DNA of 64,000 bases from Azolla caroliniana (GCA_043228905.1 JBHGNT010000001.1:17050001-17114000), one strand, 5' to 3'. Shown: positions 6,294 through 64,000, counted from the stretch's first letter. Notes: a model not told the origin generated them from the letters alone. Made by a program: numbers and translations.

Positions 6294-6315
6294 CTTCTGC
6301 TCTTCTGCCGCCTCT

Positions 6316-6333: not shown

Positions 6334-6336
6334 AGA

Positions 6337-6939: not shown

Positions 6940-7449
6940 GCGGCTGTTGTCGGTATCCGGTCAGCCTCCCTTGGCGATTGCCGGTCACCGAACTCCAAGG
7001 TTATTTCTTCCTCTGGCTCCGGTGTTACTGAGTCTTCCGACTCCTCTTCCCCCGGGTCATTTGGTGTGTCGTGGCTGCTTTTATACCGGGACGCAACGCT
7101 TCCGTCGCTTTCCGACTCCGCCTCGAGTGTTGCGAATGCTTCCGAGTCCCCGTCGCCACCGGCGAGCGTCTGTAGTATCGTTTCCGCCTCTTGCAGGCTT
7201 GTTATGCTACTGCCTTCGTCGGGGACTTGCAGAACCCGGACCTGCAGTGCTTCTTCTGCGACTCTCCGAAGAGTTCTGGAGAATGACCGATCTCGCCGGA
7301 TCTCGTCGACGGCTTGTTGTAGGGCTTCCCGTCGTTGCTCTCGTTCGGTGTATCGTCTCCCTCGTTCGGTGATGTGGTCGTCGTTTGGTCTAGACATCCA
7401 TCCCCCGGTTGTCCTCTGCACTTTGCAGGAATCGTGGTCGCCAAAATAG

Positions 7450-7839
7450 TGTTGTCTGCCTGGCCGGACTAGCCACAACACAGGTGTCTATCCGACACTT
7501 CTCCAAAGGGGGTGGTAAGGATTGGATGCTAGGTTACACGCGTAAGATGATTACACTAAGCACAGACGGTAAAACAATACAAAGACAAAGATAAACACGC
7601 AATAAGTATAATTGTATTACTTCCGTAAAGCATTTACAAATCATCGGATCCTTTTATAGGCATCCGGCAAGGTTACAATCGGTGCGCTTAGGCAACCGGC
7701 ATCCGAATCGGTCCGGATCCGGATCGGTACAACTGTACCGGATCCGTCCCTCCGAATAATAAATATACTATTATTTACTTCCTATTATTCGATCCGACTC
7801 CGCCTTCCCACTTGTCCTTGCTCTTCTGACCGGCCAACA
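7450..7839 (-). repeat. 5' LTR of element B (390 bp)
   Basis: TGTTG...CAACA termini. Shares blocks with LTR 20290-20753 (gtgtc..gacactt, catttacaa, ttttatag, gatccggatcgg). Confidence 0.85.
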
Positions 7840-9559: not shown

Positions 9560-10170
9560 GTTCGCGCCTTTCTTGATTCTTGCGCATGCGCACGTCGTGT
9601 ACTATAATGGTAATGAAGTGCCACGTGGCGGCATTTTAATGCGTTATAAATAGCCCACTACTTGGCTTTTCAAAGTGCCCGTTCACCCCTCCTTTTCATT
9701 GCATGTGGTCGTTCGCTCCTCGCCATTGCATAGTTTGGGTTCGATTTTTATTTATTTATTTATTTTTTTTAATTCGATCTTGTTAATATGTATCCAGCAC
9801 AAACGGACCCTTCTCCGGATTGTGCTTGCCGATTGCATGACCGGTTATCGTCTCGTCGTGCTTACTGGTGTCGCGAAAATACGACGAGGACACGTGAACT
9901 TGAGGCAGGACCAGGGGCCTCCGACTAGAGGATATTAGATTCGTATGTTTATATTAAACAATTAATAGAAATAAGAAAGATTGACAAATTTCATTAACAA
10001 ATAGAAAGAAAGATTACAATCAATCCCAAGATTGGGATTACAAAAGTTTAGCTTATGGAGATTGCTAGAGTAATAGATTAGAAGAATTTGAGATATGGAT
10101 TCGATAGAAAATTGGGGTTTTTGGCTTTGATAAGAGATTTTAGATTTTGAGAGATATGGCTTCCATAGGG

Positions 10171-10338
10171 AAAATTAGGGTTTATGGCTTCCGTAAGGAA
10201 ATTTAGGGTTTTTGGCTTGCGTAAGGAAATTTAGGGTTTTTGGCTTCCGTAAGGAAATTTAGGGTTTTTGGCTTGCGTAAGGAAATTTGGGGTTTATGGC
10301 TTCCGTCAGGAAATTTAGGGTTTATGGCTTCCATAAGA
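10171..10338. repeat. 28-bp tandem repeat x6 containing the TTTAGGG/telo-box motif
   Basis: Unit aaatttagggtttttggcttccgtaagg, with starts 28 bp apart from 10171. Confidence 0.9.
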
Positions 10339-10721
10339 TAAGAGAGCTAAGAAGGAAAAGAAAAATAATGGAGAGAGCATGAGTGTAGGAAAAAAAATGG
10401 AATATATATGGACTTCTCCGTTGATCATAGCCTTCAATGTTACTTTGTATGTCCACTTTTAGTTGCATAGCCTCTACTTTTAGTTGCATCCATTTTTAGT
10501 TGCATGGCTTTTTCTTTTAGTTGCATGCGACCGTCCACATGACCTTTACTTTAGTTTTCTTTACTTTACTTTAATTAGCCACATGATCCTATCATCTGTT
10601 TGTCTTGATCGCTGCCCATCCAATTCGTCTGGTCCGTGTCCAGCCTCGTCCGGTCGCCGGTTTCGTCCAATCGCCGGTTGTCGGATCCGCCCAGTTTCCG
10701 ACACCATCCAATTCTGATTTC

Positions 10722-10965
10722 TCCGGTTCCAGTTTGCTTACCAGCCAATTCCGGATTGCTTACCGGCCGGTTCCGGTTTGCTTACCGGTCGATTCCGGAT
10801 TGCTTACCGACCGGTTCCGATTGTCTTACCGGCCGGTTCCGGTTGTCTTACCGACCGGTTCCAATTTGTTTTCCGGCCGGTTCCAGTTTGCTTTCCGACC
10901 GGTTCTGGTTTGCTTACCGGCCAATTCCGGATTGCTTACCGGCCGGTTCTGGTTCCATTACTGGC
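10722..10965. repeat. About 20-bp CCGG-rich tandem repeat inside the solo LTR
   Basis: About 12 degenerate copies of ccggttccggtttgcttaccgg. Confidence 0.85.
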
Positions 10966-18700: not shown

Positions 18701-20289
18701 CTACTAACTGCAATAGCCGACCTAATGGTAGCGTGATTTGGCATTCTTGCAACGCCTGCCATATTGGGTTTTCCGCTTGGCTATTGTCAGTTAGCTCCTC
18801 TAGATTCTCCTTTTGTTGTTCCAGTTCTGCTACATTCTGCTCATTTGCCTTCTTTACCCATTCGGTGGCCTGCTTCCAGATGGTTTTATGGGTTTCCCAC
18901 TCCGTTGCTTTTCCTTTTGCCCTCGTGGTCACTTGTTGTATGTCCTCCTGGTTGCTCCGTAGTTCGATTTGCCGGACCGGTGGTGCTTGCCGATTCAGCA
19001 AGTTATACTCGCACTGATCCATTGTGTGGTTTCTGGAATGGCAAAGCAGGCATTGAGAACGCATGGTGCACTCCAGCGCCGAGTGTCTGGCATTCAGGCA
19101 AGTCGTACATTGAATTGCTTGTCGAAAGCGGAGGTCTTCATTAGTTGGTAACGTTCGTTGGAGTGCCCCCATCGTCAACCATGAGTTGGAGTTTTCCATT
19201 TCCCTGACTCCATCTATGACCTGGTCGACGGAACTCGTGCGGAAATCAATGACTATGCACACCGTTCGTAGGGGTTCCCAGAGTGCTACTAGGAATATTG
19301 CCCTAGTCTCTTCCTCCGGTGGTGTCCGATTGAGCTGGTTGTGCATTCTCTAGAATCGGATTACAAATTGTTGAATGTTCTCTGTGGGCTCCTACCTGAT
19401 GGTATAAAATAGGCCGACCATTTCCCGCTGATCCACCTCTTTGTGAAAAAAGTGTAAGAATTTAGTTTTCAAGGTCTCAAACATCGTGATGGTACTGGGA
19501 TCTTGCGTTAGGCGCCATCTGGCGGCGGGCCCTTCCAGGGTCATGCCGAACTCCGCCATCTTGGAGTGTTCTGCTTCGGCCGCGGTTAAGCGTTGCGACA
19601 CATGATTCGCTTCCCAGGTCTCCTGAAATGCATAGACGTGGGCCTCTACGTCCGGATCATCCCGGTACTTGGGATATTGAAACGACATGTCGTCGTCCGG
19701 TGTTGGAACACAAGCTGGTGGTGTCAGAGGTCTCTCCTCCTCCGTCGGAGGTCTCTCCTCTTCCTTTGTCGGAGGTCTTTTCGTCTCTACTTCGGGTGTT
19801 GGGGTTTGCTCAGTCCTTGGCCATTCTGTGGCTTCCAGCTCTGTCAATTCTGGTTCCGGTGTTAGTAAGGTATCTGATTCCTCGTCCGCCGGTCCGTCTG
19901 GGGTGTCCTGACTGCTGTGGTAATAAGAATGAGCGCTATATTTGCCGTCCGAGTCTGATTCAAAGGCCGAAAATGGTTCTGAATCGCCGTCTCCTAGAGT
20001 TAATCCCTGTAGAAGGGATTCCGTTTCCCGAAGACTACTTAAATTGCTTCCTTCGTCGGGGTGGAAATCTTGTTGCAAACGGAGTGACTCCTCGGCCACT
20101 CGCCGGATCACTTTGGAAAATGATTGATCTGAACGAATTTCTTCCACTGTCTGCTGGAAGGCCTCTCACTTCCCAGCCGCTCAGCGAGTCTCCTTGCTCG
20201 ATCCGTAACCGGTCCGCTCGTTGGTCTAGTCATCCATTCCCGCCGTTGTTTGCTACGCTTATGCAGGAATCGTGGTCGCCAAAAAACTG

Positions 20290-20753
20290 TGTTACTCCTT
20301 CGGGCTGGACAATAGCCTAACACAGGGTGTCTGCAGAAGACACTTCACCAAAGGGTGTTACGGTGAAACAGAGTTAGACCAATGATTAATCAGACCTTAA
20401 TCGGTTACTTAAGCAACATATCCTTAATCTTAATACACGTGTAAGATAGAAAGTAATTAGCACAGAACGGTAATCAATACACAGAGATAAGACAATAGAG
20501 CTTTATTAATTATCCGTCGTCATTTACAATGTAACCGAGCCTTTTTATAGATCACCGGCTCTGCATACAAAACGGTGCCAACTGGCACACTAATATGAAC
20601 CGGTCCAGATCCGGATCGGCATACCGATTCCGGTCTGTCCATTCACTTCTCTAAAATCTTACTTAATTACTTAATATCCTAATAACAACTTCCGATTATT
20701 TCTGCCCCTTTCATATTCTGGACTGTCCTCCACTCCTTGCCGGCTGGCTAACA
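20290..20753 (-). repeat. 5' LTR of element C (464 bp)
   Basis: TGTTA...TAACA termini, adjacent PBS, and similarity to 7450-7839. Confidence 0.85.
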
Positions 20754-20788
20754 TATAAATGGGCACTGCTAAATACAATATTTATAAT

Positions 20789-23662: not shown

Positions 23663-26600
23663 ATGGCATCTGATTCTGCCCATCATGTGAGACTGAGACC
23701 CATCCGAACGACACCCACTAAGAAGCCGCCGCCGCCGCCTTTTTGTGCAGAAGAATTAGGTCGTGGGCTCCATTCCCAATCAGAAGAAGATTCAGAGAAT
23801 GTTTCCGCTGTTCATGATGCGGATGATGCTGATTATGAACCACTTACCCCTGCTAGTAGAGTCTTTTGTAGCCCTTCTCTCAACATGACCATTCTCGTTA
23901 CCTTTGGATTGAAGACCTCTTGTAATATCGATGCTCTAAAAGAAGGCCTGAAGAGTACTCTGCTCAGACACAAGCGTTTCTGTAGTGTTGTGGTAAGTGA
24001 GCTTTCCTTCTCTTCATTGTTTTTATCATTCAGCATCCTCTATTTACATGCGAAAGAAAAAAGAAGAAGAGAAGGTAGAAACGTTATTGTATTAGTTAGG
24101 CTATGGTTTTCCATAGGAAATAACCTCCGAGATACCCCCGCATTTTGCTTTATTTCCTCTAATGCTCCTGAGTTTTTCTTCATTTCCCTATCAAATGCCA
24201 TTTTTCAATGGCCTCTCTCTCTCTCTCTCTCGTGTAAACTGTATATGCTATTTGAGCCTGTGTTGTCTGGTCCATTCATCCCCGTTCTCCCTTTTTGGGG
24301 GGTTGATCATGAGCATTTGAATAAGAACTTTTTTAGAATTTCTCCCTTCTCAAGTTTTTTTTTTTTCCATTTTTGATAAGAAGTTTTTTGTTATGTCGAA
24401 GTCTAAATTGTTTTTGAAGTATGAGCGTGATAATGAGACACAGTCCTTAGAAAAATAAGCTTCCCTTTATATGATGAAAATTCTATGGCTGGAATTTTTG
24501 ATAAGAAGTTTTTTGTTATGTCAAAGTCTAAATTGTTTTTGAAGTATGAGCGTGATAATGAGACACAGTCCTTAGAAAAATAAGCTTCCCTTTATATGAT
24601 GAAAATTCTATGGCTGGAATTTTTGATAAGAAGTTTTTTGTTATGTCGAAGTCTAAATTGTTTTTGAAGTATGAGCGTGATAATGAGACACAGTCCTTAG
24701 AAAAATAAGCTTCCCTTTATATGATGAAAATTCTATGGCTGGAATTTTTGATAAGAAGTTTTTTGTTATGTCGAAGTCTAAATTGTTTTTGAAGTATGAG
24801 CGTGATAATGAGACACAGTCCTTAGAAAAATAAGCTTCCCTTTATATGATGAAAATTCCCTTTACCTTCATTCTATGTGAAAGAGTAAGACATAATTTAG
24901 AATTTATTTTTCTTTGATAATGAGGTTTGTATTGGACAATCTGCTTCATTCTCTAGGAAGAAGCATCATTAAGAACATAATTTAGATAAATAAGCTTGGT
25001 GCTTTTTATGTCATGTGGAAGATCTCTTCACTCCAAGACAAAGCATAAGCATCATCAAGGTATGGTTTAGGAAGTAACATTTGTGATGAATCATGATGAA
25101 TTTTGAATCTTATCTTGTTTGTGATTTTCAATTTACAGAGGAAAGGAAACGGAGATGAATTTTATTGGGCACGTACGAATGTCAATGTAGATGATCATGT
25201 CATTGTTGTCACACCAAAAGGTGCTGATGTGAGTTCAGCGACCTTTGTGGAAGACTATGTAACTGATCTCATGCAGGGCCCCCCTCTTGATATGGCCAAA
25301 CCACTTTTTGAATTTCACATTGTGAAAGCAAAGCTCGGGGATGCAATGGAAAACATGATTATGCGAGTGCATCATTCGATGGGCGATGGGATGTCTCTTA
25401 TGTCGCTTGTGCTAGCATGTACAAGAAGAGTCGATAAACCTGACACCATGCCAACCCTTCCAACCTATAAACAAAAGAACAGAATTAAAGAAGGGTTTTG
25501 GAAAAGGCACTTTCTGCTCCTATGGAGCGTCCTTCTCATGCTGTGGTTTACCCTACAGGACATATTTATCTTTACAGCTACATGTTTCTGGTTGAAGGAC
25601 AGCCAGATCTCTCTCAAGGGTTATTCTCGGCTTGAGAACTTACCCAAAAAACTTGTGCACACGACAATTTCGTTGGATGATATTCGCAGTGTCAAACAAG
25701 CAGTAAATGCTGTAAGTTCCTTATCAAGAATCATTGTGTGTACACTTTTATATCCATATCTATATTTTGTATATTCTTGGTTAGATTATAGGGGAATTGA
25801 CCAAAATACTCTGAATGTTTCACAAAAATCTTAAATACCCCTAGCAGTTCAGAAATTCGCAAAGTACCTCTGCTTCAAAATGCCAGCAGCGTTTTTGGAT
25901 TTTTTTGAACAATGGAGGGTAGTCTGGTAAATTAATGCTTGCTCCCAAAATCTTCACCCTGTAGAGAATTGGTATTATTAATATGTCAAACAACCACAGT
26001 TTTGTTAGGGTCTCTTAGAACCTTCATGTGCACATTATCTCTCAAGGGCATCAAGTGTTACACATCTACGAGCATGTAAAGCACATGCAAAGTTCCGCAC
26101 GGAGAATCAGGGCCCTGTGCATGGTACTTCCATAGAGATAAAAAGATTCTTAAGGTCAAAGAGACTGAATAAGTTCCATCTGATGAAACCGAGCAGAGAC
26201 CAAAAACTCTTGCATTGAGTCACTACATTCCAGAGTGGTATCTAGTGACTGAGAGGGATACCAAAATCTTTTGGTCAACCCCTACATTCTACAATGTCAT
26301 CATTAAACTAATGTAATAATGAAATTTGAATTCTTATGCATACATTTATAAAAACATGTTTTTTCTGATTGACAGACTGTAAATGACGTCCTATATGGAG
26401 CATTTGTGGCTGGATTTTCACGTTACTTATGGGAGCATCATGGTATGGTGAAGTGCAATCACTTGTCTCACTCATCTTAATAAGCTTCGATTTAAAACTC
26501 AGAATTAAGTGTGGTATCATCTTAATCACTTTTAATCAGGTTTAATGTACAACATTCTGTTAAGAAGTGTACTGACTGAACATGGCTTTATTTTCTGATT

Positions 26601-41481: not shown

Positions 41482-43068
41482 GCGTGCAACAACTCGAAGA
41501 AACCATAGTAACAATGCAAGAACAAGGACCCAGTACGCAATAAGTTTATAAAGAACCCAAGATCCTCCTTCCCATGAAATTTGATGGAACGCGATCGCAG
41601 TTTAGAGGATTCCTTAATCATGTACGATTAGTCATTCAAATGCATCCTTCTCGATATCCCACCGATGCATCACGAGTGGGTTTAGTAGGCATGTTGTTAA
41701 GTGGCTTAGCTTTGGTATGGTTCGCTCCGTTGTTAGAAAAGGAATCTCCTTTACTAAACAATTTTGAAGAGTTTTTAAGTGAGTTTAAAGCCTGTTTTGG
41801 AGATACTGACAACATAAGGACAACAATCAACAAAATCCGACGATTACGTCAAGGTGATTGTCCAGCCTCCGCATACGCTGCAGATGTCTGCCTACTCGCC
41901 TCCGATATCCCTTGGGATGACCATGCACTTATGGAGCAATTTCGTTATGGTCTACGTAACGATGTCAAGGATTTATTCTTGACCTTCCCCGAAGAACCAA
42001 AGTCATTGACAGAAGAAATCAGTCGCGCGGTGAGATGTGACAACCATCTTTTCGAATGACGTTCAGAACATAAGTTCTAGATGCCAAGGGCAAGATCAGA
42101 GCCCATCTACATGTCAGTGGTAGCAAAACCTTTTCCAAGGGAGTCATATAATATGTCTCCAGTGAATACTCCAACTCCGTTGGAAATTGACACTACACGT
42201 CATCACAGACCATTATCGGAAGAAGAAAAGCAGTGACGCCGAGGAAATCGACTATGTCTTTATTGTGGTGGACTAGGGCATATTGTAGTGAACTGTCCCC
42301 ATAGGCCAAGAAGACAAGTGAACCAAATAGTTTCTAGTTCTAATTGTACTAAACCCGAGACTATTTAAGTAGTAATATCTAATAGTCCTAATAGTACTAA
42401 TAGCCCAAATCTATCGAACAAATTTGATGTCCTTAGTTAGTTAGAAGAAGAGTTAAATGACTAAATCCAACCAAAATAGGAGTCGATTGGTTGGACAACC
42501 CTAGATCTGTGCAGCCCATTAGTGGTTCCATTCCCACTAAGCAAGTTAGCAACGTGTTCTTAGCCCAAGTAACCATTAGTACTAAAAGTACCCCTCTAGT
42601 ACATGTCTCAACACTCCAAGATTCCGGAGCTAATTCTTGCTTCATGGATAGGAATTTTGCCCAAGCTCATCAGATATCCCTAAGAAAACTCCCGTGTCCA
42701 GTCTCTGTAGTAGTCATTGATGATCATCCCATTGCTTCCGGAAATATCATAGAAGAGTCAGAGTGCGTTAATATTGTCCTAGATAATTTAGCTTGTGTAG
42801 TATCCTTTAATATAATTAGTATCCCAGAACATCCCATTGTTTTGGGATTACCATGGTTTGAATTACATAACCCAGAGATAGATTGGAGAAGAAGGGAAAT
42901 CCGGTATCGACAAACCTGAGGATCTACTCATAAGATTGCAACAATTTCGCTACATCAGTTGCATGGGGAAGGACGCAAGGAATAAATGTTCTCTTCGTAG
43001 TATCAGTAAAACCCTCTAACACCACTAAAGAGGAGTCCACCGTTCAACTTCCAGAGAAGTATTGTCAT

Positions 43069-45976
43069 TGTTGTAAGTTTTAGGGTTAGGGTTAAGGACG
43101 ACGACGATGATGAATGATAACTATGATGATTGGTAATGAAGATAGACATGGTGATGGAGAGTATGATGGTGAGAGAGATCATATAGAGAAGCATTGCGGG
43201 GTGGGGGGTGGTGCCTAGAATGGCTCCACCCCCCTCCCAAGGGGGTTCAACATGAGAGAGGGAGAGAGAAGAGAAAAGGTGTCAAAGAGAGAGAGATTAG
43301 AGAGAAATGTTCATTCATGTTTCATTCATTCCCCATAAGGGGTTAAATAGTACAAGAGGGGGTAGATACATAGGGGTGTAAGCCCCATTGAGCATTCATA
43401 CTGGACACTCACTCACACCTCCTCGTATCCATCCACATGCACACACGTGTGCATGTGTTCACATACGTATAGACTCACAATTACATTTATGCCTCCTACA
43501 CAGACACAACAACATCATGATAACATTCGCTCCTCGATCATCACACTTGACTCTCCGTACATCTCGTACGGGGTAACACAATATGGCACGCCCGTGGGAA
43601 AGTGCCTTGCACGTCGATCCCACATGCCTTGATGATGATATTTCTTTGACCGGAAATTCCATCGGTCCTTTCAACGATCGACTCCCTCGATCAGAGTGCT
43701 TGACTCGAACATCTTTGTCGGTCAACGAATCTTCCGCGACACGAACCTTCTCGTTCTGTCGGCTTACGAACTTTGGTAACATCATTCGGGTCGTAAAAAA
43801 GACGTTGTATGTATGTTTGTTCTTCTTTGTATCTTGTGAGTTGTGTGTGGATCACGTCCATTTCTTTTAGGTAGATGAGTTTTCGAAATTTCCTCGTTGC
43901 CCTTTGGTTATTAAAACTCTAATATATACCCTCGAACTTTTGAATTTGCAATGGGTACCCTCAAGGTTTTGAAATTTGTTGCCCTTGTCTTTGTCTTTTC
44001 CTTTCTCCTTTCTGTTTTGTCTTCCTCTCTTTCTTCATTTTTTCTCTTCTTCCTGTCTGTTGGTCCCTTTGTGTCTCCTTCTCTTCTCTTTCTTCATTTC
44101 TACTTCTCTGTCTCTCCCGGTTGCTTCTTTGTCTGTCCGTGGTTTTTGGTGTCTTTCTCTTCTTCCATGACATCTTTTTCTTCCTTCACTGTTCTTCTTC
44201 TTCCTTTCATTTCTCTTCTCTCTTCTTCTTATTTTCTGCATGTCTACCTCTTTCTTCTCTGTGTTGTCTTTGTTTTGGTTGTCATGGTTTGTCGTCTGTC
44301 CAGCTTGTTTGGCCACTCCGGCCACTGTTCGGCTATTACGGCCGCTTCGGCAGTTCCTCGGCCACTCTTTGGTCGCTCGTCCATCTCCATCTCCTGCCGT
44401 GGCCATCTCCAACCACTGATGCCGTCCTTGTCCAGCTGCCTCCGTTCGGCCACTACGACCGCTCTTAGGTCACTCTCCGGCCTCTCCTCCGTCTCTGTCG
44501 GTGTTCGGTTGTTGTCCTCCTCTTTCGACCGTGCGTTCGGTCCGTCGTCCCGGCCGTCTCGTCCACTGTTCGACAATCGGTGTGGCCGCGCCCTTTCGGC
44601 CTCACCGGCCTTTTCCATCATTGTCTCGGCCGCTGTCCAACTGCCTCTATTGCGGACTCCATCACCATCTCTATCGGTTCCCGTCCATTTGAGTCCGCCT
44701 CTATGTCTCCGGCTCCGTTGCTATCTCTGTATGGCCATAGTCTAGTGTTGCTGCTTTTTGGCCGCTCGTCCGTCGCCTTGTCCGGCGTGTTCGTCCGTTC
44801 CGGTCATCCTCTCGTCGTCTATCCGGTCATCAGTTGTCTGGTCCGGCCGCCTCCGTTTTGTCGTTGTTCGGCTGTGTCTTTTCGGCCGCCTTTGCAACCT
44901 TTTGATCATCCTTGCTATTTTGTCCGTCGCCTTGTCGCCGTCTATTCGGCCTGGTCATTGTTCGTCTGTGTCTTTTTTGTTGTCTCTCACACCACGCTTT
45001 CTGGCACATGCACTATGTCATTAACTGCACATTTGCACATTCTCGTTTCCATTCTTGCACACTCACGTAACATCCTCATTCCATAACTTCCTCTCAACAT
45101 TGTCATCGTTTTCGTACATCTTTGGCACCATTTCTTGGACATTTACACAAAACAGACCAAACAAAACATACACATATAGAGATTAATTCGCTATAGAATT
45201 ATGCGGCAGTTAATCTTCCATTTTGGACTTCTTTCGCACATTGTTGTCGCCTTTTGCACAACATCATCGATTCCATTTTTTTCTTTTTTTCTTTTTTTTT
45301 GCACATCTTCATTGCTTCTCCCACATCGTCGTTGCCATTTGGTGCATGTCATCATCATTTCTTGCTCATCTCTCCCATATCATCGTCACTATGCCTCGAA
45401 TCGCCGCGTATTATTGTTTGACTCCGTCTCCAAAGGGGGGTTGCCTTCGTGGTCGCCATAAGGTGTTGTACGTTTTAGGGTTAGGGTTAAGGACGACAAT
45501 GATGATGAATGATAACTATGATGATTGGTAATGAAGATAGACATGGTGATGGAGAGTATGATGGTGAGAGAGATCATATAGAGAAGCATTGTGGGGTGGG
45601 GGGGTGGTGCCTAGAATGGCTCCACCCCCCTCCCAAGGGGGTTCAACGTGAGAGAGGGAGAGAGAAGAGAAAAGGTGTCAAAGAGAGAGAGAGATTAGAG
45701 AGAAATGTTCATTCATGTTTCATTCATTCCCCATAAGGGGTTAAATAGTACAAGAGGGGGTAGATACATAGGGGTGTAAGCCCCATTGAGCATTCATACT
45801 GGACACTCACTCACACCTCCTCGTATCCATCCACATGCACACACGTGTGCATGTGTTCACATACGTATAGACTCACAATTACATTTATGCCTCCTACACA
45901 TACACAACAACATCATGATAACATTCGCTCCTCGATCATCACACTTGACTCTCCATACATCTCGTACGGGGTAACA
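43069..45976. mobile_element. Non-autonomous LTR retroelement (2908 bp) with a PBS at both LTRs
   Basis: LTRs 43069-43578 and 45464-45976 (about 98% identical by eye, TGTTG...TAACA). Perfect 5-bp TSD GTCAT. 1.9-kb CT-rich interior with no gag or pol. PBS-like sequences at 43584-43599 (+) and 45444-45458 (-). Confidence 0.92.
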
Positions 45977-46935
45977 GTCATTATGCCGATGTGTTCGATA
46001 AAGTACAACCGAATACGCTTCCTCACCATCGACCGTATGATTGCCCCATTGATTTACAACCGGGAAAAGAGCCACCATGGGGACCGATCTACAATTTGTC
46101 ACCAACCAAGCTAGAAGTCCTTCGAGCCTATATAGAAGAGAATTTGGCAAATGGTTTCATTCGACATTCAAAATCTCCAACCGGCACACCCATCTTCCTC
46201 GTCAAGAAAAAGGATGGATCACTTCGTCTCATTGTAGATTACCGTGGCTTGAATAAAGTCACCATCAAGAATAGGTACGCACTTCCCCTTATCTCGAGTC
46301 TCTTAGAACGGATCAATGGTGCAATGTTCTTCACAAATATGACTGCGTTTCGCACCAGATATGGGCACTTTGAGTATACGGTCATGCCATTCGGCATCAC
46401 TAATGTGCCAAAAGTCTTCCAACACATGGAAAATGATATATTCCGAGATCTCTTGGATGTTTGTTTGATCATGTATTTGGATGATCTATTGGTTTATTCG
46501 AAGACCCAACAAGAGCATGATTCTCACGTATTGTTAGTACTAAAACGACTTCGAGAACATGGTCTTTATGCAAAGTTGGAAAAATGTAGTTTCGAGTGCA
46601 ACCAGGTAGAATTTTTGGGCTACGTCATTTCCTCGGAAGGCATCTCCATGGATCCAACTAAGGTCAAAACGGTGGTAGAATGGAAGACTCCACGTTCGTT
46701 GCGAGATGTGCAATGCTTTTTAGGCTTTGCCAATTTCTGCCGCAAGTTTATATAGGATTACTCAAAGCTTGTTCTGCCTCTCACACAACTCACTAGGAAG
46801 GGACAATCCTTCATTTGGTCTAAAGAAGCAGACATGGCTTTTGAGGGTCTTAAGAAGGCATTTACATAATCTCCTATTTTGACTCATGTTGATCCGGAAA
46901 AACCATTCATCATCGAAGCAGACACGTCAGATTTT

Positions 46936-52858: not shown

Positions 52859-55800
52859 GAAACAAGTTGTTTTCAGTTTGCCAAAGTTTAGTGGTCGGAA
52901 GGCTCATGTATGTGAGGCCTTCCAACTCGGGAAGCAACACCGGCTTCCATTCCCCATCGAACGAAACCGGAGCCTTAACAAGCTCGACCTTATTCATTTA
53001 GATGTATAGGGACTGACACAGAATGGTAGTCTTGGCGGGTGTCGATACTTCATCTCCTACATTGACGACTATAGCCGGCACACATGGATCTATCTCATCG
53101 AGCGGAAGAGCGAAGTCTTCAAGTGTTTCTGGAAACGGAGAGGAAGATCAAGTGCCTGTAGTTGGATGGCGGAAAAGAATATTTTTCCGGTCAATTCAAC
53201 ACTTATCTACAGCAAAAAGGAATTCGAAGAGAGTTCAGCTGCAGATACACATCGGAGCAAAACGGTGTGGCCGAAAGGAGGAACTAGTTGCTTATTGACG
53301 CGGCAAGGGTGATCCTGGAGGAGAAGATTATGCCTAAATTCTACTGGGCTGAGGTGGTCCGAACGGCCGTGTACATCCAAAACCGGATTGGTGACAAGGT
53401 GTCCGCGCATGAGTTGTATTTCGGGCACAATCCGAATTTCAGACACCTTCGGATATTCGGTAGCATTGCATATGTGCATGTGCCGGATAAAAAGCTGAGG
53501 AAATTGGATGCAAAGTTGGAGATGTGCATCTTAGTCGGTTACTCACATGAGCAAAAGGGGTATAAGTGTTATAACCCCCGGACGAAGCAGGTCTGAGTTA
53601 GCCAGGATGTTGAGTTTGATGAGACGGCATCATGGTATGCCTTACCGGCTCCGACTTCCGACCCCGACCCGATACTAGAGGATGAGGCTAGTGAGCCTGA
53701 ACCGGTCTAGTTAGAAGATGAAGGGTTTGAGACTCTTGATGAGTCCGGAATCGTTTCGGTTGAGCGGGCCGAACTAGTGGCTGAGTTAGGATGACCAGTC
53801 GGATGAGGAACCAACGAGTAGTGGAGACTCTGTCGTGCTCTCCCTGTGCAAGGAACCGAGGAGATGGTTCACGTGCAAAGAGAAGGGGAAGAAGAAGATA
53901 CCAGAATACGAAACTGGCAACGTTGAGTTGGATAGGAGCGAATCCGACTCTGGAAAGGATAAAGGTGGATCTTCGGGAACGAAGTTCGAAGCGGCCAAGA
54001 AGGGCCTCAAACCGGGTAACGATAGATTATGCCAGTCTTCCTGCCAGAAGAACCCTGTGAAACGGTACGGGTACAATGAGTACATGGTGCATCACTATGT
54101 GTACATGACCAAGGTGGCGAAAGTGCATGAGCTGGAGAGCTACGCAGAAGCGGCAAAGGACGCGAATTGGCGTGTCGCTATGGAGGAAGAAATGCAACTA
54201 CTTGATGCAAACGACACATGGGACCTAGTTGACCCTCCCCAACACTGTAAACTGATCGGATGTAAGTGGGTGTACAAGGTAAAGTAAAATGACTCCCCGA
54301 CACTGTAAACTATTCGGTGAACCGGTACAAGGCCCGGTTAGTGGCAAAGGGATACGCACAAACCCACAGAATCGACTAGGACGAGACCTTCACTCCGGTA
54401 GCAAAGATGACGACGGTTCGTGTGGTGCTGGCGGTTGTAGCGGCAAGGGGGTGGAATCTTCACTAGATGGACGTGAAGAATGCATTTCTTCAAGGTGATC
54501 TTGAAGAAAAGTTCTTTATCATCCAACCCTCGATTTTCAGTCGGAGATGAACAAGTCGGTGGTATGCCGGCTGAAGAAGTTACTTTATGGCTTAAAGCAA
54601 GCCCCTCGAGCTTGGAATGCGAAGATCACGCACTGGTTGCATAAGATGGGGTTTGCGGCCTCCAAGTCTGACTCTTCCTTGTTCATTCGACAAGGTCCAG
54701 ATGGTCCAGTTTGCATCTTGCTATATGTTGATGATCTAGTCATCACCGGACCCGGAGTTGATGAAATCAGCCGAGTCAAGTCCAACTGTCCGATGCATTT
54801 GAGATGAAGGACCTGGGGGACCTTCATTATTTCCTTGGGATCGAGGTGATCCAAACCCCCGAAGGCATATTTCACTCACAAAGACACTATGTGTTGAATA
54901 TGTTGTACAAGTTCAGCATGAAGGAATGCCAACCGATCTCCACACCCCTGGACCGGAACCAGAATCTTCGTCCCGACTCTGGACCAACCTGCGATGAGAA
55001 GCGGTTTCGACAAATCGTTGGAAGCCTTATATATTTGATAGTCACCCGACCCAACATCGGTTATCCAGTTGGCGTGATCAGCCAATATATGTAGAAGCCG
55101 ACCGTGGAACACCTTTTGTGCGCGCATCGAATTTTGCGATATGTGAGTGGCACGGAGGACCGAGGACTGTTATACCAGCATTGTATAACCGAAGAGCTAG
55201 TCGGCTACACCGATGCCGACTGTGCCGGCAATGCATCAGATCGCCGATCCACCTCCGGCTATATGTTTTCCCTTGGTAGCACGGCTGTTGCGTGGAGCAG
55301 CAAAAAGCAGCCAACAGTGGCCCTTTCGAGCACTGAGGCTGAATACCGGGGCAGTATCGTTGCCACCTATGAAGCCATTTTGCTCCTGCGACTCCTACAT
55401 GACCTACGGATGGAGGTGCCGACCCTGATCCTGATCTACTACGACAACATCAGCAGCATGCAACTCGCCAAGAACCCCGTAATCCATGCTCACACAGAGC
55501 ACATTGAAGTGCACTACCACTTCTTGTGTGAGCGTGTCCTGAGCGGCGAAGTCGAACTTCGGTATGTTCATACGGATTGGCAAGTTGCCGACATCTTTAC
55601 GAAACTGCTCGGATCGGACAAGTTGCAACACTTCACCGAAATGCTTGGTGTTCAGCATCTCAACGTGCCACACTTGAGGGGGAGAACGGGCAAAGACACC
55701 GAAATAGGCAAAGGCAAAGAAACTGCCGATTGCGCCGGTGAGGGAAGAATCGACAAAGGGAAAGACAAGAAGAAGAAAGGAGCCGAGTAGACAAACAAAG

Positions 55801-56745
55801 TTGACACATTTGAACAAGTCGGAAAAAGTGGCAGTGGCAGTAGAGTCAAGAAGGATAGAGCTAACCGAGAAGAAGGCCAAGACCTGGACATGGTCCGATG
55901 TGGTGAAGGGCCTAGAACCGGAAGACGAATCAGGAGCGACCAATTCAGACAAGAGCTGGAACAAATCAGAGACAATTGATTCGGTTCAACAAACAGATTC
56001 GGAAGAACCGGATCAATTCAAGGCTAAGAGGACGAGAAGGCAGCGAAAGTCGACACCAACACGTAGGAATCAGCGAATCGGCAAGAGCCTAAGTCACAGC
56101 TGTGAGGGAGCTTAATCGGGCCTGTTGAGCAGACAAGCCGACCAAGGAGGTCGAGGTGCGCAGAATCAGAAGGGTCGCGGCAAACGGGACTACACCGGAC
56201 GAGGAGCGCGAGCGAGGCGGAGTGACGCCAGAAGGAGCCGGGTAGAAGGACCGACTACTACGGAGATTGACACTACGATCCGAGCTCAAATTGAGCTTGA
56301 GGGGGAGTGTTGAGCAGCAAGCTCAACTGGATCTGGATCGGCTGAATAAGCCTAAGCCGGATCGGCATCCGGAAGGATGAGCCGGATCGGTGAGCCGGTG
56401 AGCAAGTGGGCCGGTGAGCTATGGAGCCGGTTAGCCGGATCCAGTAGTAACCGGAAGCCTAGCAATAGCCTAGACTACTAGGTAGTTAATGTCTCGTAGT
56501 TAGTGTCAGACGCTTGTGTGAGCATTGAAGTACACCGTACTTCTGTCAGTCCTTGTAGGACTTTTATAAATAGTGTTGTTTAGCATGTTGTATGTACAGA
56601 GAATTTTATAGGGTTGTTATGAATAGATTTAAGTTGTTCTAATCTTTCTTTGTTTCTCCTGCGTACTCTGTATATTCAAGCTCTCCATTAAACCTACGTT
56701 TCTGTGTTTGGTTTTCTATTGCTTCCGCACGCTATTCCTTTTACA
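52859..56745 (+). mobile_element. 5'-truncated Ty1/Copia (related to 30843-40028 and 59772-64000)
   Basis: IN, RT (YVDD) and RH (KKQPTVALSSTEAEY). PPT GAGGGGGAG. 3' LTR 56308-56745. Confidence 0.9.
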
Positions 56746-57347
56746 AGAGGGAACTTGCCAGACAACTCTACACAACATACCAGGAAGCCAACGAAACCAT
56801 CCCGCAATTTATAATCCAGTTTTAGACATTGTACAACCAGCTCACAAGGGCATTCCCAGAGGACAAAGCGAAGACAATCTTTTTGGCTACACTCTAGGAA
56901 CCACTCCAAACGATGCTAGTTGTGCTAGATTTCCGTACGAACACCATTGATGAAGTCATTGACCTGATTCTGGAATTGGATCAGGCTCAAAACGGAAACT
57001 ACATGGCGATGAGGGCCTTCCAACGCGTGTTGCCAAGAGAGGAGGACCTGTGATTCCGGAAGGTAGTACAGTGCACAACGTGTCTCAACCCTGTTCATTC
57101 CAATGTGGAATGTACGATGAGGACCCAATGTATGTTGTGTCACTCTTGGTCACACACCATAGACCGGTGTGAGTATAATTTATTAAATCGATAAGCAACG
57201 CTGGTCTGAGAAATTGAGCCCCGGGATGATCGATGACCGGATGAGGAGTGGTTCCGACGAGAGGGTCGTTACAGTCCAGAACATGGATACCAGTACGATG
57301 ACCGACAAAGAGAGGATTATGTTTGGGACCGCAATGAATGAGATTAC
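56746..57347 (+). pseudogene. gag fragment of the element B/C family
   Basis: Translates through stops to ...QCTTCLNPVHSNVECTMRTQCMLCHSWSHTIDRCEYNLLNR, matching 18561-19346. Confidence 0.85.
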
Positions 57348-57434
57348 TGTCAAGTATAGTATTGAAATAGAGAGGAAATTAGTATTAAGAGATGAAGATT
57401 AGTATTAAGAGGAAAAGAGGGTGCAAAACAATTC
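57348..57434 (-). repeat. Terminal stub of a Tcn1-family LTR
   Basis: tgtcaagtatagtattga...ttagtattaaga resembles the reverse complement of 40380-40448. Confidence 0.55.
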
Positions 57435-57919
57435 AGATAGATTCTATTATCATCTTGGAAGGTCAAATATGACCTATGAGACCAAAAATATTACATTTCA
57501 CGTGATACGTGTGAAAGTGAGTAGTGACTCTTGATGTTCAAGAACTTTACCAATGAATGTTGCAATTGAGAGTGCACATTGTGGTTGTGAGAGGAATTCA
57601 TGCAAGGATTGGGCTCGATCGAAGAGATGTGGAAAGCATGGTCGAATATGATCAAAGGCAGACCATTGTATCAAAGTGTGATATTCCGACTCGCGAACAT
57701 GTTTAGGGCAAGTGTACATAGCTGACCACTCTCATCACTTGTGCCCCAACGCCTTGTCTCACATCACAATGCATGTGAGCTAAGTCGCATGGAAGCAATG
57801 GTTCGAATGGCAGATAAAGATATGGCCTCTAAGATGTATCGATGTGTACGACTTCCCCATTCGCCAAGAATATGGTTTTGTAGTTAAGTGCAACATGTAT
57901 ACTATAATGTGTGAAGCGT
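57435..57919 (-). mobile_element. 3' end of a second RTEX-like LINE copy
   Basis: Reverse complement of about 37689-38175 (ESEYHTLIQ...LLTFTRIT) with a short ATCT tail. Cut by the LTR at 57920. Confidence 0.92.
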
Positions 57920-59697
57920 TGTCGTGAAAAATACATCACTACATGCGGATCATGAGGCGAAATAGCCGGGGTTCCGAGGTTCTGGATCGGAAGGATTCAA
58001 AGTTTGCACTAGCTTTAGCGAGAAAGTATTTAAGATAGATTGAAAGAGAGAGAGATTGAGATAAGATAGAACGCTTGACTTTAGATTGAGAGAGATTGAA
58101 ATGGAGAGAGTGATTAAGATAGAATCCTTGACTTTAGATTTCAGGAACAAGATATATCATCAAATGAATTTTCTTCTTCTTAAATTCTTGATTAATACCT
58201 AGCCCCCTTTTGATCTTTTTCATCCACTCTTCTATAGATGCCCCCATGCATATGATACATGTGAGGGTACAAGACATGCATACAATGCATGGAATGCATG
58301 TGCATGCATGTTTGTTACTTGGTGCTCATGCATTACATGTGATGCATGATAACCATGTCACTCATTCAAGCTCTAATATGAGAATTTACATGTGAAAATA
58401 TAATGATAGAAAAAACATTTCTAGAGAAATGACTTGTCTTAGTGGTAAGTTTATTGGCTCCAATCTTGGAGGTGCAAGATTCAAGCCTTGCTTGCATCTC
58501 TTTGAATACAAATTTTTACTAGGTTTTTTAGTCTAGATGATTTTGTTCATTTCACACTGAAATTGGCACGATCAACCTATCTGATCGATCCGTCTATCCG
58601 GACCATCTAGTACGCATCTAACTCGGTGATCCGATCCGGTTTGGTTTTGGTTCCGTTGCCGTCCGTCCGGTCCGGTCCTCCAAAACCGTTACGAGTAGTT
58701 AAGCCACAGTTTAGACCAAGAACATTTTGTGCTCCACACAGAAAAAAAGTAAGAAGTTCTTTTTCCCAAACTTCACATTCACATAACTTGACATTTAGTT
58801 GTCGTTTCAAATGTAGTAAAGTACATTCGGAATCTCTTGAAGACATCCATCTTTTCGTACCAATATATTAAACTAATCTAAAATAGTATCTTTACTATTA
58901 TTGGTTCATATCATGTGTGAAGAACCACACTTGATTTTGTATGTTCCTTGCAATTTTCACACCATTGACGAAAATCTTCACGACATCCACCCCCACCAAA
59001 CCGCACGTCCTCCGATACAGGCCAAGAAGAGAGAGTTTGAGATTTCAGCTACGATGATTAATCAGATTCCTCCATGTCCTCGTTCACATAACTCAATTCT
59101 TCATCGTCAAGGTGATCGAGGTCAGGATCCTCGTCTTGTCTTTTCTTGAAAATCTTTACTCTTTTTCTCGGAATGGGTATGGCCAACCTTGATCCGTCTA
59201 GCTCCGCAAGGTGGTATGTGGCATTGTCCTTGACACTTGTCACCACATATGGTCCAAACCATCTTCTTGCTAACTTTCTTGTTGTCCTGTGTTGATTGTC
59301 AAGGGTGTTGTCGTAGAACAATACCCAATCTCCTTCTTTGATCTTCTTGGGACATAGTTGATGTGTCTTATTGAACCGAATCTTGTTCTTCACTTGGGCT
59401 GCCTCCATCATCTTTCGCAATTTTTCTAGATCTTCAGGCCTTCTTTCACGCTGCCTTATCCGTGCCGCCAATAATTCTTCTCAACTCATCTCGTTCTTCC
59501 ATGGTATCGCTACCCATGAGGCGATCGTCCTTTCAATGGGCATTACCGGTTTCTGTCCATACATAAGCTCTATTGGCATATACCATGTCATTGAACTGTG
59601 TGTAGTTCTGTCAGGCCACAAGGTATAGGGCAATAGTCGTGGCAAGTTTCCAACTCGACCGTTGCATGCTCGTACGATGCCCTTGACAATTGGTCCA
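57920..59697 (-). mobile_element. 3' end of a Gypsy of the element A lineage: integrase C-terminus, PPT and 3' LTR
   Basis: LTR 57920-58985 (TGTCG...CGACA). PPT-like GGTGGGGGTGGA at 58986-58997 (-). Integrase ...ARRWFGPYVV...YHLAELDG is homologous to 755-1330. Confidence 0.9.
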
Positions 59698-59771
59698 TGT
59701 AATAACCAACATCATTAATCCTAAAATAAAGATATAAATGACACAATCATACTGAAAATATGCGTTACCAC
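59698..59771. repeat. Possible LTR stub between the integrase and the Copia
   Basis: AT-rich 74 bp starting TGTAATAACC that matches neither neighbour. Confidence 0.35.
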
Positions 59772-62700
59772 TGTAAAAGGAATAGCGTGGGGAAGCAATA
59801 GAAAACCAAACACACAAACGCATGTTTAATGGAGAGCTTCAATATACAGAGTACGCGGGAGAGACAGAGAAAGATTAGAACAACTTAAATCTATTCATAA
59901 CAACCCTGTAAAATTCTCTGTACATACAATGTGCTCAACAACACTATTTATAAAAGTCCTAAGAGGACTGACAGAAGTACGGTGTACTTCAATGCTCACA
60001 TGAGCGTCTGACACTAACTACGAGACATTAACTACCTAGTAGTCTAGACTACTGCTAGGCTTCCGGTTACTGCTGGATCCGGCTAACTGGCTCCCCAGCT
60101 CACCGGCCCACTTGCTCACCGGCTCACTGATCCGACTTAGGCTTATTCAGACGATCCGAATCCGGTTGAGCTTGCTACTCAACACTCCCCCTCAAGCTCA
60201 ACTTGAGCTCGGATTGTACTGTCAGTCTCCGTAGCAGCCGGTCCTTCCACCCGGCTCCTTCTGGCGTCACTTCGCCTCGCTCGCGCTCCTCGTCCGGTCC
60301 GGTCCCATTTGCCGTGACCCTTCTGATTATGCACACCTCGACCTCCTTGGTCGGCTTGTCTGCTCAACAAGCCCAATTCAGCTCCCTCGCAACTGTGATA
60401 TCGTCGCTTGCCGATTCGCCGATTCTTTCGTGTTGGCGTCAACTTTCGCTGCCTTCTCGTCCTCTTGGCCTTAAATTGATCTGGTTCTTCCGAATCTGTT
60501 TGTTGAACTGAATCGACTATCTCCGATTTGTTCCAGCTCTTGTCTGAATCGGTCGCTCCCGATTCGTCTTCCGGTTCCAGGCCCTTCACTACATTCGACC
60601 ATGTCTGGGTCTTGGCCTTCTTCTTTCGGTTGGCTCTGTCCTTGACTCTGCCAACGCTGCCGCTTGTTCCGACTTGTTCGGATGTGTCAACTTCCTTTGT
60701 CGACTCGGCTTCTTTCTTCTTCTTGTCTTTCCCTTTGTCGAATCTTCCCTCACCAGCGCAATCGGCAGTTTCATTGCCTTTGCCCATTCCGGTGTCTTTG
60801 CCCGTTCTCACACTCAAGTCTGGCACGTCGAGATGTTGAACACCAAGCATTTCGGTGAAGTGCTGCAACTTGTCCGATCCGTATGAACATACCAAAGTTC
60901 AACTTCGCCACTCAAGACATGCTCACGCACGAAGTGGTAGTGCACTTTGATGTGCTTTGTGCGAGCATGGAATACGGGGTTCTTGGCGAGCTGCATGCTG
61001 CTGATGTTGTCGCAATAGATCAGGATCGGGGTCAGCACCTCGATCCGCAAGTCTTGCAGCAGTCGCCGAAGCCAAATGGCTTCACAGGTGGAAATGGTAG
61101 CGCCCCGTTATTTAGCATCAGTGCTCGAAAGGGCCACTGTTGGTTGCTTTTTGCTGCTCCATGCAACAGTCGCGCTACCAAGGGAAAACATATAGCGGTC
61201 CCCAGACATCTGATGCATCACCGGCCCAGTTGGCATCGGTGTAGCCGACTAGCTCTTCAGTTATACCATGCCGGTATAACCGTCCCCGGTCCTTCGTGCC
61301 GCTCACATATCGCAAAATTCGATGCGCGCACAGAAGGTGCTCCACGGTCGCCTTCTGCATATATTGGCTGATCACGCCAACCGGATAATTGATGTTGGGT
61401 TGGGTTATTGTCAAATATATAAGGCTTCCGACGATTTGTCGGAACCGCTTCTCATCGCAGGCCAGTCCGGAGTCGGGACAAAGCTTCTGGTTCCGGTCTA
61501 GGGGCGTGGAGATGGGTCGCCATTCTGTCATGCCGAACTTGTACAACATATTCAACACATAGTGTCTTTGTGAGAGCGATATGCCGTCGGGGGTTCGGAT
61601 CACCTCAATCCCAAGGAAATAGTGAAGGTCCCCCAAGTCCTTCTTCTCAAATGTGTTTGATAGTTGGGACTTGACTTAGTTGATTTCATTGAGTCTGGGT
61701 CCGGTGATGACTAGATCATCAACATATAGCAAGATGGAAACCGGACCATTTGGACCTTGCCGGATGAACAAGGAAGAGTCGGACTTGGAGGCCGCGAACC
61801 CCATCTTACGCAACCGGTGCGTGATCTTTGCATTCCAAGCTCGGGGGGCTTGCTTTAGGCCAGAAAGTGACTTCTTCAGCCGGCATACCGCCAACTTGTT
61901 CAGGTTCGACTGGAAACCGGGAGGTTGGATCATAAAGAACTTTTCTTCAAGATCTCCTTGAAGAAATGCATTCTTCACGTCCATCTGGTGAAGATGCCAC
62001 CCGCATGCCACTGCAACCGCCAGCATCACACGAACCGTCGTCATCTTCGCTACCGTAGCGAAGGTCTAGTCTTAGTCGATTCCGTGGGTTTGTGCGTATC
62101 CCTTCGCCATTAACCAGGCCTTGTACCGGTTAGCCGAACCGTCGGCATTGTACTTTACCTTGTACACCCACTTACATCCGATCGGTTTATAGTGTCGGGG
62201 ACGGTCAACTACGTCCCCTGTGTCGTTTGCATCAAGTGCCCGCATTTCTTCCTCCATAGCGGCATGCCAATTTGCGTCCTTTGCTGCTTCTGCTAAGATC
62301 TCCGGCTCACACACTTCCGCCACCTTCGTCATGTACGCATAGTGATGCGCCATGTACTCATTGTACCTGTACCCCTTCACGGGGTTCTTCTGGTGGGAAG
62401 ATCGCGTAATCTATCGTTACCCGGTCTGAGGCCCTTCTTGGCCAGTTCGGACTTCATTCCCGAAGATCCACCTTCATCCTTTCCGAGGTCGGATTCGCTC
62501 CGATCCGACTCAATGTTGCCAGTTTCGTATTTCGGCATCTTCTTTTGCTCATGTGAGTAACTGACTAAGATGCATATATCCGACTTTGCATCCAACTTCC
62601 TTCGCTTTTCATTTGGAACATGCACATATGCAATGCCGAATATCCGAAGGTGTTCGTCTTGCGCCCGAAATACAGCTCATGCGCGAACACCTTGTCACCG

Positions 62701-64000
62701 ATCTGGTTTTGGATGTAGATGGCCGTTCGAACTGCCTTAGCCCTGTAGAATTTGGGCATGCTCTTCGCCTCCAAGATCGCCCTTGCTGCGTCGATAAGCG
62801 ACTGGTTCCTCCTTTTGGCCACACCGTTTTGCTCCAGTGTGTAGCTGCAGCTGAACTCTCTCCGAATTCCTTTTTGCTGTAGATAAGTGTTGAATTGACC
62901 GGAAAAAGATTCTTTTCCACCATCCGATAGTAGGCATTTGATCTTCCTCTCCATTTCCCGTTCAACCAGGCTTGGCAGGTTCTAGAAACACTCGAAGACT
63001 TTGCTCTTCCGCTCGATGAGGTAGATCCATGTGTGCAAGCTATAATCGTCAATGAAGGAGATGAAGTATCGACTCCCGCCAAGACTAACATCGAGATTGT
63101 TATGGCTCCGGTTTCATTCGGTGGGGAATGGAAGCGTCACCTACTTGGGCCTTCCAGCCACTAAACTTTGGCAAACTAAAAACAACTTGTTTCGTTTGCA
63201 AGGCTTGAAGCCTTCGGTAATTGACGTGGCCGATCCGCTTGTGCTAGAGATCAATATCCGATTCAATCTTCGGTCCTTTGGTGAGAAAAGCAATGCCTAC
63301 GTCATTGGTGTCGAGGATGAATATCCTCCCATCTCTACACCCTTGTGCAATAATTTGGCCCTCTTCCTCGATGAAGCACCCAAGGTGCGTAAACCACACC
63401 TGCATCCCTTGGTCAATGATCTGACCGACTGACACCAGGTTCTTCATGATAGTTGGAATGTGTAATACGTTCATTAGCTTCCCCCTCTGTCCGATGTGGC
63501 TCAAAGGGACTTCTCCGACATGCATGATTGGGTGAGGAGTGTCGTCTTCGGTTTCGACGACCCCCGGTTGTTTCGGTTTCTCCAAGAAAGAGAACCACTC
63601 TTTGTGGCTCGTCATGTGATTTGACACACCAGAATCAACGTACCACACTTCCTCCAATTTGGAAGTGGTCTTCTTCATTGAGTTAGCCTCATGTTTCATC
63701 ACAGAGGATGGTCATTTACCGGCTTTTCCGGTTTTGGATCTTCCCGATCCTTCTACGTACTGTGAGTATTGCCAGTTCTCTCTGTCGGCCTTGCCGGATC
63801 TAGATCTGTCCGAATCAGCGCACTTTTGCTAGCATTCGCTTTCTCTGTGGCCCTTTTTACCATAGTACCAACATTCCGTGTCGCCCTTTGCTTGCCAGTC
63901 TCCGGCGCTGCCTGGACTCCCCCTGCTTGTGAAGGGTCCAAAACTATTGTCGGCACGTTCTCTGTGCCTTCGTGTTGAAGACGAGGCCGTGTCGATGCGG
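59772..64000 (-). mobile_element. Ty1/Copia running off the right edge
   Basis: 3' LTR 59772-60184 homologous to 56308-56745, with PPT. RH, RT, IN, PR (WYVDSGVSNHMT) and a gag knuckle. Confidence 0.92.

Follow-up and report, generated by a model that had tools for sequence, protein, structure and literature searches.

A tRNA-Arg(UCU)-like site in the place of the polypurine tract, and probable tRNA priming of both DNA strands, in a Ty3/gypsy lineage of Azolla caroliniana

In the accessible text of two sources, priming of the plus strand by a polypurine tract (PPT) is treated as general in retroviruses and in retrotransposons with long terminal repeats (LTRs) (PMC12789967, PMC5371799). How does an LTR element start its plus strand when it harbors no such tract? 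The question is raised by a 2.9-kb non-autonomous element of a plant Ty3/gypsy lineage, with the minus strand as coding sense, that lies in a 64,000-nt stretch of Azolla caroliniana (GCA_043228905.1 JBHGNT010000001.1:17050001-17114000; "the window", in which positions are counted). A first-pass annotation had described the element as carrying two opposed tRNA primer-binding sites (PBSs), here called sites A and B, with no PPT next to the downstream LTR, and had proposed that a second tRNA replaces the PPT or that transcripts of either strand can be replicated. Our analysis of the window and of 523 Mb of genome sequence demonstrates that the feature is real and lineage-wide, and that this is a Ty3/gypsy-derived element; its probable plus-strand priming route is absent from the accessible text of the literature searched.

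The element has the characteristics of a non-autonomous LTR retrotransposon: direct LTRs with TG...CA ends, a target site duplication (TSD), a tRNA PBS and a non-coding body, in which none of the 3 open reading frames (ORFs) tested has a Pfam match (coordinates are given in Table 1). The LTR ends, the 5-nt spacers, sites A and B, the position of AAAGGGGGG, the TATTTAA motif and the GTCAT TSD are all present as the first-pass annotation had described them. Its further claim of recent integration as a unit holds in that the TSD is perfect; LTR1 (510 bp) and LTR2 (513 bp) share 98.05% identity, differing by 7 substitutions and 2 small indels within simple repeats (1.4% divergence), and the insertion is recent in that sense rather than in the sense of identical LTRs. 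The U5 end of the LTR also holds telomere-like TTTAGGG/TTAGGG units (43080-43095 and 45475-45490).

Sites A and B correspond to two different tRNA-Arg isoacceptors of the genome itself. Among loci picked by pattern search, ARAGORN called a tRNA-Arg(UCU) gene at 5 of 12 for that isoacceptor and a tRNA-Arg(UCG) gene at 3 of 6 for the other. Site A copies the tRNA-Arg(UCU) 3' half, with 11 nt of perfect match counted from the CCA, a 1-nt gap and 5 nt more; the copy is interrupted by a 13-nt insert in the T-loop and then continues as a likeness of about 20 nt. Site B, read on the minus strand from LTR2 as the spacer CCTTA followed by TGGCGACCACGAAGG (45458-45444), matches tRNA-Arg(UCG) perfectly over 12 nt. 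The local alignment scores of 44.5 (A against UCU) and 51.5 (B against UCG) were each reached by none of 2000 dinucleotide shuffles, and the crossed pairs scored at chance level (597 and 568 of 2000). Even the distal parts alone score 29.0 for site A and 33.0 for site B, values reached by 5 and 4 of 2000 shuffles, respectively. The anticodons assigned in the first-pass annotation are thus borne out, and both sites have a genomic tRNA match.

No PPT was found before the 3' LTR, as had been claimed: in either orientation 9 of the 20 nt abutting the downstream LTR are purines. The candidate tract AAAGGGGGG was rejected as a PPT: it is on the non-coding strand, the LTR is 23 nt away, and 4 of 13 copies of site B are without it. 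In alignment it falls on the tRNA-Arg(UCG) anticodon arm, and it is contained in the longer likeness of site B to that arm, so a tRNA-derived origin fits better than a PPT.

Both sites are conserved among copies of the element. From an LTR search, 40 of 1,673 candidates were scored and 30 loci of those examined; site A is on the inner side of the LTR in 14, site B in 11 and both in 2 (tandem), and 3 are solo LTRs. LTR pairs were resolved in 10 of 20 wider stretches, and with the window element added all 11 pairs carry both sites, which leads us to reject a one-off chimera. Perfect and distinct TSDs flank 10 of these 11 pairs, so the check in independently inserted copies that had been proposed came out in favor of both sites. 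All 16 family copies that have site A share the identical 5-nt spacer on the U3 side, and in 14 of the 16 site A matches the tRNA for 11 nt. At site B the match spans 4 to 18 nt across 13 copies, reaching 18 nt in 2. Contigs of four sequencing runs cover both ends of the element, and one contig each from X14 and X20 bridges LTR1 and site A; these are not taken as proof of conservation.

What site A stands for is clarified by coding relatives. An RNase H query gave 16,653 candidates, of which 150 were listed, and 10 elements were fetched, mostly picked for long open frames. Site A lies 2 nt ahead of the 3' LTR in all 10, and an Arg(UCG) PBS lies ahead of the gag-pol frame in 9. A purine tract before the 3' LTR is absent in 10 of 10 (9 purines in 20 nt; longest run 4 in the last 40 nt). 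Perfect 5-bp TSDs flank 6 of the 10, and LTR identities are 97.9 to 100%. The order gag, protease, reverse transcriptase (RT), RNase H (RH) and integrase (INT) is found in coding relatives, both in the single frame P0001 and in relatives with RT, RH and rve. It follows from this layout that site B is an ordinary 5' PBS, that the coding sense of the window element is minus, and that site A occupies the position of the PPT; the minus orientation is based on the homology of both the U3 start and site A to the 3' junction of the coding elements. The LTRs of the coding elements have no blastn match to the window element's LTR at E 1e-10. Their spacers are 2 nt on the U3 side and 6 to 7 nt on the U5 side, and we therefore dropped the argument that symmetric 5-nt spacers are a sign of symmetric processing.

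Two further members of the lineage, elements B and C, extend out of the window to the left, and their 3' junctions were inspected there as had been suggested. Element B has its 3' LTR about 14 kb beyond the left edge of the window, with an intact site A before it and the TSD GTAAT; for element C the distance to the 3' LTR on that side is about 16 kb, and the site A before it is decayed. The sisters of the window element keep both sites and have no PPT. Coding elements also carry an extra ORF of about 1,000 amino acids after pol (window 7970-9653; L031:6289-7107; L042:5664-8675), with no Pfam match in the pieces scanned and a weak Atlas lead (0.86) to the clusters of PF03078 (ATHILA ORF1) and PF20167 (plant transposon protein).

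A genome-wide count of the site-A core with TGT directly behind it gave 2,299 matches, some of them counted twice, and the reversed control gave 0. The 13-nt insert can form a 4-bp hairpin whose covariation was assessed in alignment A2 (27 distinct variants of 34 found, with several stem versions). In this alignment 96% of cells are paired, 14 cells are changed on both sides, and 2 of the 4 pairs are double-changed. Such pairing was equalled by none of 500 shuffles, a test that shared ancestry inflates, and slid controls were lower.

The strongest evidence that a tRNA is used at this position comes from tRNA sequence left at the ends of element DNA. A tRNA primer that is not removed predicts the real tRNA outside U3, and a primer made from the element's own RNA predicts the template form. 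There are 32 exact genomic matches to GTCCCAC(C/T)GGGCGTGCCA, the 18-nt tRNA end with CCA. Eight of them, at five independent places, place the real form of tRNA-Arg(UCU) at the 5' end of plus-sense DNA; all 8 are without gap and without insert, they extend up to 57 nt, and three end at exactly 18 nt. RT stops at m1A58 of a tRNA, and the length of 18 nt fits such a stop. In a member of the window element's own LTR family (L157), about 50 nt of real tRNA, with slippage, lie outside the 5' LTR, and the template form lies before the same element's 3' LTR. A cluster at 12.0 Mb of C2 (L154-156) has 57 nt of real tRNA before U3 in three copies. At 17.53 Mb of C16 (L177/178; TSD AATAG) there are two identical junctions of U5, 18 nt of real tRNA, spacer and U3, and the internal site A of this insertion has a sequence other than that of the footprint. 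At L322, a member of a family with an Arg(UCG) PBS, a U5 end is joined to 18 nt of tRNA-Arg(UCU) and continues into gag in plus sense. The fifth place, L160, is where an inverted recombinant has its 3' junction. As to the other 24 matches, 20 read as ordinary 5' PBSs of Arg(UCU)-primed families, and four (L161, L164, L169 and L176) were assigned to neither class. On sequence grounds, these plus-strand 5' ends support the earlier proposal that a tRNA replaces the PPT.

Other tRNA copies and tRNA-like stretches accompany these elements. At L068:1-170 two U5 ends form a head-to-head fold-back around a long tRNA-Arg(UCG) copy with CCA, and L051, L059, L060, L061, L065 and L066 have mature tRNA-Arg copies of 36 to 56 nt with CCA next to LTR ends. 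ARAGORN miscalled one of the latter as a tRNA-Tyr gene with an intron; tRNA annotation can thus be inflated by footprints of this kind. A tRNA-Gln(UUG) call at L064:2443-2516 is nearly identical in body to the adjoining tRNA-Arg(UCG) gene and is possibly an anticodon-shifted copy or pseudogene. The U5 of elements B and C (7450-7520 and 20290-20360) and of L099-type LTRs holds, 40 to 60 nt from the LTR end, a short complement to part of tRNA-Arg(UCG) (anticodon stem and variable loop), which may be an accessory primer-pairing element. In L161, L169 and L176 (~1460-1520), probable non-coding families, the Arg(UCU) site is adjoined by a stretch like the Arg(UCU) anticodon arm, and Arg(UCG)-primed families have the UCG version; the stretch appears to track the primer tRNA. 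In some families the 5' PBS and site A both correspond to tRNA-Arg(UCU) (L228:5017-5530, L170, L308).

Taken together, we consider it probable that the element replicates from its sense transcript by dual tRNA priming, with tRNA-Arg(UCG) at site B for the minus strand and tRNA-Arg(UCU) at site A for the plus strand. The RNA of the element would be packaged by proteins of the coding relatives and thus mobilized in trans, and tRNA-Arg(UCG), paired at site B, would start the minus strand. Once the first jump was made, site A would be copied by RT, so that the minus-strand DNA would display a complement of tRNA-Arg(UCU), and RNase H would clear the RNA. We infer that tRNA-Arg(UCU) then anneals to this DNA in parts, with 11 nt of its acceptor end and then with its T arm, the 13-nt hairpin being looped out. 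From its CCA end, plus-strand strong-stop DNA would be primed through the spacer into U3. Both primers would normally be removed and the spacers trimmed by integrase; where removal failed, the minus strand would copy the plus-strand primer and leave the real tRNA outside U3.

Several points weigh against this account. The pairing at site A is perfect over just 11 nt because of the 1-nt gap, and the outer T-stem-like helix is without covariation in alignment A2. The penultimate base of the site is changed in 45 genome matches, mostly to CTA. These changes are mostly in a CCAGG (CHG) context, which would fit later methyl-C decay; the CTA form is also present in two metagenome copies. With 8 of them set against about 2,300 template-form sites, the footprints are aberrant products of a rare kind. 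They indicate that tRNA-Arg(UCU) can be joined at this position rather than that it is used in every cycle, and they would fit a minus-strand DNA or an antisense RNA template alike. The control, in which no U5 end linked to the template form was found (0 matches), used one narrow pattern. Junction searches were made for two families: that for the main coding family gave 2 matches (L309, L310), in which CCA or microhomology is shared and which are compatible with either primer model, and that for the window element's family gave 1 match against 1 in the control, hence chance. Finally, no clean autonomous copy of the exact LTR family is among the copies examined. One candidate, L031/L032, has family LTRs and a coding body (gag, RH and INT by Pfam in L032); it was dropped as a clean member because it encloses a coding-family LTR and is therefore a recombinant. 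This recombinant suggests co-packaging of the family with coding elements.

An alternative that retains dual tRNA priming is that the element is an orientation-free replicon, in which both sites are ordinary PBSs, either the sense or the antisense transcript is copied, and the two tRNAs swap roles. The PPT is missing in both orientations, as this would require, and the footprints are compatible with either template. In addition, an inverted element at 8.087-8.095 Mb of C3 (L159/L160, L291/L292) has LTRs of this group that are 99% identical and a perfect TSD, CTTCA; its body, a coding element in inverted orientation, is linked via site A, with Arg(UCU) sequence at both junctions. However, the gag-pol frame and the TATA-like box point one way. 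Site B varies from copy to copy, with its 18-nt match in a minority, as a regenerated PBS would, whereas site A retains its gap and insert, and the one internal real-tRNA case (L160) stands against about 2,300 template-form sites. We regard the orientation-free replicon as unlikely, on an estimate that overlaps with that for dual priming from the sense transcript. The broader proposition that this PPT-free lineage is primed by two host tRNAs, can hence be copied from the transcript of either strand and can package inverted bodies such as that at C3 8.09 Mb is somewhat less unlikely, though still doubtful.

The primer could also be made by the element itself, with site A acting in its own RNA as a tRNA mimic that is spared by RNase H and cut after the CCA, in effect a non-purine PPT. 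The position and the 2-nt spacer of site A in coding families are equal to those of a PPT, the template form is inherited stably, and the covarying hairpin could act in RNA, where it would confer RNase H resistance. In the accessible text of PMC5371799, the Ty3 PPT is unlike retroviral PPTs and each RT is suited to its own PPT. However, 8 of 8 footprints have the real-tRNA form even where the internal site of the same element differs, the template-form junction search with one narrow pattern was empty, and L322 has tRNA-Arg(UCU) starting plus-sense DNA away from site A. These observations make the mimic improbable. A third possibility, that site A is a relic of an old tRNA read-through or a chimera and that the plus strand is primed elsewhere (e.g., at AAAGGGGGG or an upstream purine run, with the end trimmed), has in its favor that both sites resemble long decayed tRNA copies and that chimeras are common in the lineage, but it is highly improbable given that site A is kept with compensatory changes across non-aligning LTR families, coding and non-coding, always 2 to 5 nt from U3, that AAAGGGGGG has the wrong strand, distance and distribution described above, and that footprints of real tRNA terminate at this very CCA and spacer.

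A site-A-like junction is present in 5 of 80 metagenome loci, most of which are too short to reach a 3' LTR; those from ENA may derive from the same or related host plants. One locus with the junction, L259, is together with L263 sister to the genome's families inside a clade with 100/100 support (L259 being a partial row of low identity; the row of L114 was disregarded as a wrong, distant match). Contigs outside this clade (L223, L232, L234, L236, L283) have purine runs before the TG that follows pol. The clade is closer to contigs and to proteins of liverworts and ferns, at about 50% identity, than to those of angiosperms, at about 40%. The tree, built without REXdb references, separates the lineage from angiosperm proteins and from a contig with an Asp PBS that groups with conifer proteins.

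Table 1. Positions in the window of the element, its parts and neighboring retroelements
Feature	Position	Strand	Remarks
Left TSD GTCAT	43064..43068
3' LTR in minus (coding) sense	43069..43578	-	U3 starts at 43578
U3 spacer, 5 nt, from CCA of site A to U3	43579..43583	-	CAATA on +
Site A core, inverted PBS at PPT position	43584..43599	-	TGGCACGCCCGTGGGA on +; on -, sense copy of tRNA-Arg(UCU) 3' end with terminal CCA; putative plus-strand primer site
13-nt insert with 4-bp hairpin, within T-loop of tRNA copy	43601..43613	-	Covariation
Site A distal part, like tRNA-Arg(UCU) variable loop and T-arm 5' strand	43614..43633	-	Shuffle-tested alignment
Non-coding internal region, minus strand purine-rich	43634..45401	-	Common to other family copies
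Site B extension, complement of tRNA-Arg(UCG) D and anticodon arms	45402..45446	-	Contains AAAGGGGGG (45432-45440 on +)
Site B, PBS for tRNA-Arg(UCG)	45447..45458	-	12-nt perfect match
U5-PBS spacer, 5 nt	45459..45463	-
5' LTR in minus (coding) sense	45464..45976	-
TATA-like TATTTAA in U3, putative	45741..45747	-	LTR position 230/513 read on minus
Right TSD GTCAT	45977..45981
Ty3/gypsy-type element hosting the insertion	41544..46755	+	Pfam Ty3_capsid and RVP_2 (gag, protease; left), RVT_1 (RT; right)
Element B	7432..7839	-	Arg(UCG) PBS 7432-7443, 5' LTR 7450-7839
Element C	20270..20756	-	Arg(UCG) PBS and 5' LTR

The window is otherwise rich in repeats. Another Ty3/gypsy element, with a truncated left LTR and a PBS that we take to be of the tRNA-Trp type, is inserted in the gag of element B at 296-6940. 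A large inverted duplication of retroelement sequence spans 52859-63193 (about 87% identity over 2.9 kb), and tandem arrays with periods of 28, 22 and 125 bp lie at 10107-10350, 10679-11016 and 24244-24983, respectively.

Among known systems, hepadnaviruses prime their plus strand with a translocated piece of viral RNA, their minus strand being protein-primed. The Azolla lineage would resemble them in that minus-strand DNA is primed by an annealed RNA that is not a PPT, and would differ in that this primer is a host tRNA. As far as the accessible text of the sources allows the comparison, the lineage shares with canonical Ty3 and retroviral elements the TG...CA LTRs, the 5-bp TSD, the tRNA-primed minus strand and, in coding relatives, the order gag-PR-RT-RH-INT, where PR is the protease (PMC5371799, PMC12789967); unlike them, it has an inverted tRNA-Arg(UCU) site for a PPT and real-tRNA footprints at plus-strand starts. 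The predicted pairing of the tRNA by its acceptor stem and its T arm, two segments separated by a loop, recalls the bipartite PBS of Ty1 and Ty3 (PMC5371799), which serves the minus strand on RNA, whereas site A is oppositely oriented, occupies the place of the PPT and would have minus-strand DNA as its pairing form. To judge from the available portions of PMC6317226 and the ATHILAfinder preprint (10.64898/2026.03.20.713144), the lineage is like Athila, Tat, Phygy and Selgy in its 5-bp TSD, length of about 10 kb, gag-pol in one frame, additional ORF following pol and AT-rich spacer of several nucleotides between LTR and PBS. It is unlike Athila, which has Asp or Asn PBSs and a conserved PPT, in having Arg(UCG) and Arg(UCU) PBSs and no PPT (PMC6317226; 10.64898/2026.03.20.713144), and unlike Phygy and Selgy, given there with 4-bp TSDs and Trp or Ala PBSs, in its 5-bp TSDs and Arg PBS (PMC6317226). 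Tat is described in the same text as carrying an extra RNase H, aRH (PMC6317226). In the pol pieces of our lineage that were scanned, with no aRH-specific profile, just RT_RNaseH families are found, and P0001 shows no apparent space for a second RH. Helenus terminal-repeat retrotransposons in miniature are likewise non-autonomous LTR elements with tRNA-like sequence (PMC10886601). As described in the accessible text, Helenus and TRIMp3 have the tRNA-like part inside the LTR, are shorter than 1 kb and have a PPT, whereas here the tRNA copy is outside the LTR, the element is 2.9 kb long and no PPT is present; that tRNA-like part is a proposed RNA polymerase III promoter, stated not to prime (PMC10886601). 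Only canonical PPT priming is described in the accessible text of 10.1101/2022.12.06.519325 and PMC7472051, and a tRNA-primed plus strand has no description in the accessible literature searched, a search with subscription papers, Repbase and preprint supplements outside it.

If tRNA-Arg(UCU) does prime the plus strand of these elements, the PPT step of LTR retrotransposition can change, as is shown by a lineage of high copy number, in which junctions of this kind number about 2,300 and the identity of LTR pairs reaches 100%. It would then be predicted that RT or Gag anneals a tRNA to DNA and that RNase H removes tRNA from both ends. Two tRNA-primed ends would offer a route for primer switching and for inverted recombinants, and would double the target for 3' tRNA fragments. 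Annotation tools that depend on a PPT will miss or mis-orient such elements.

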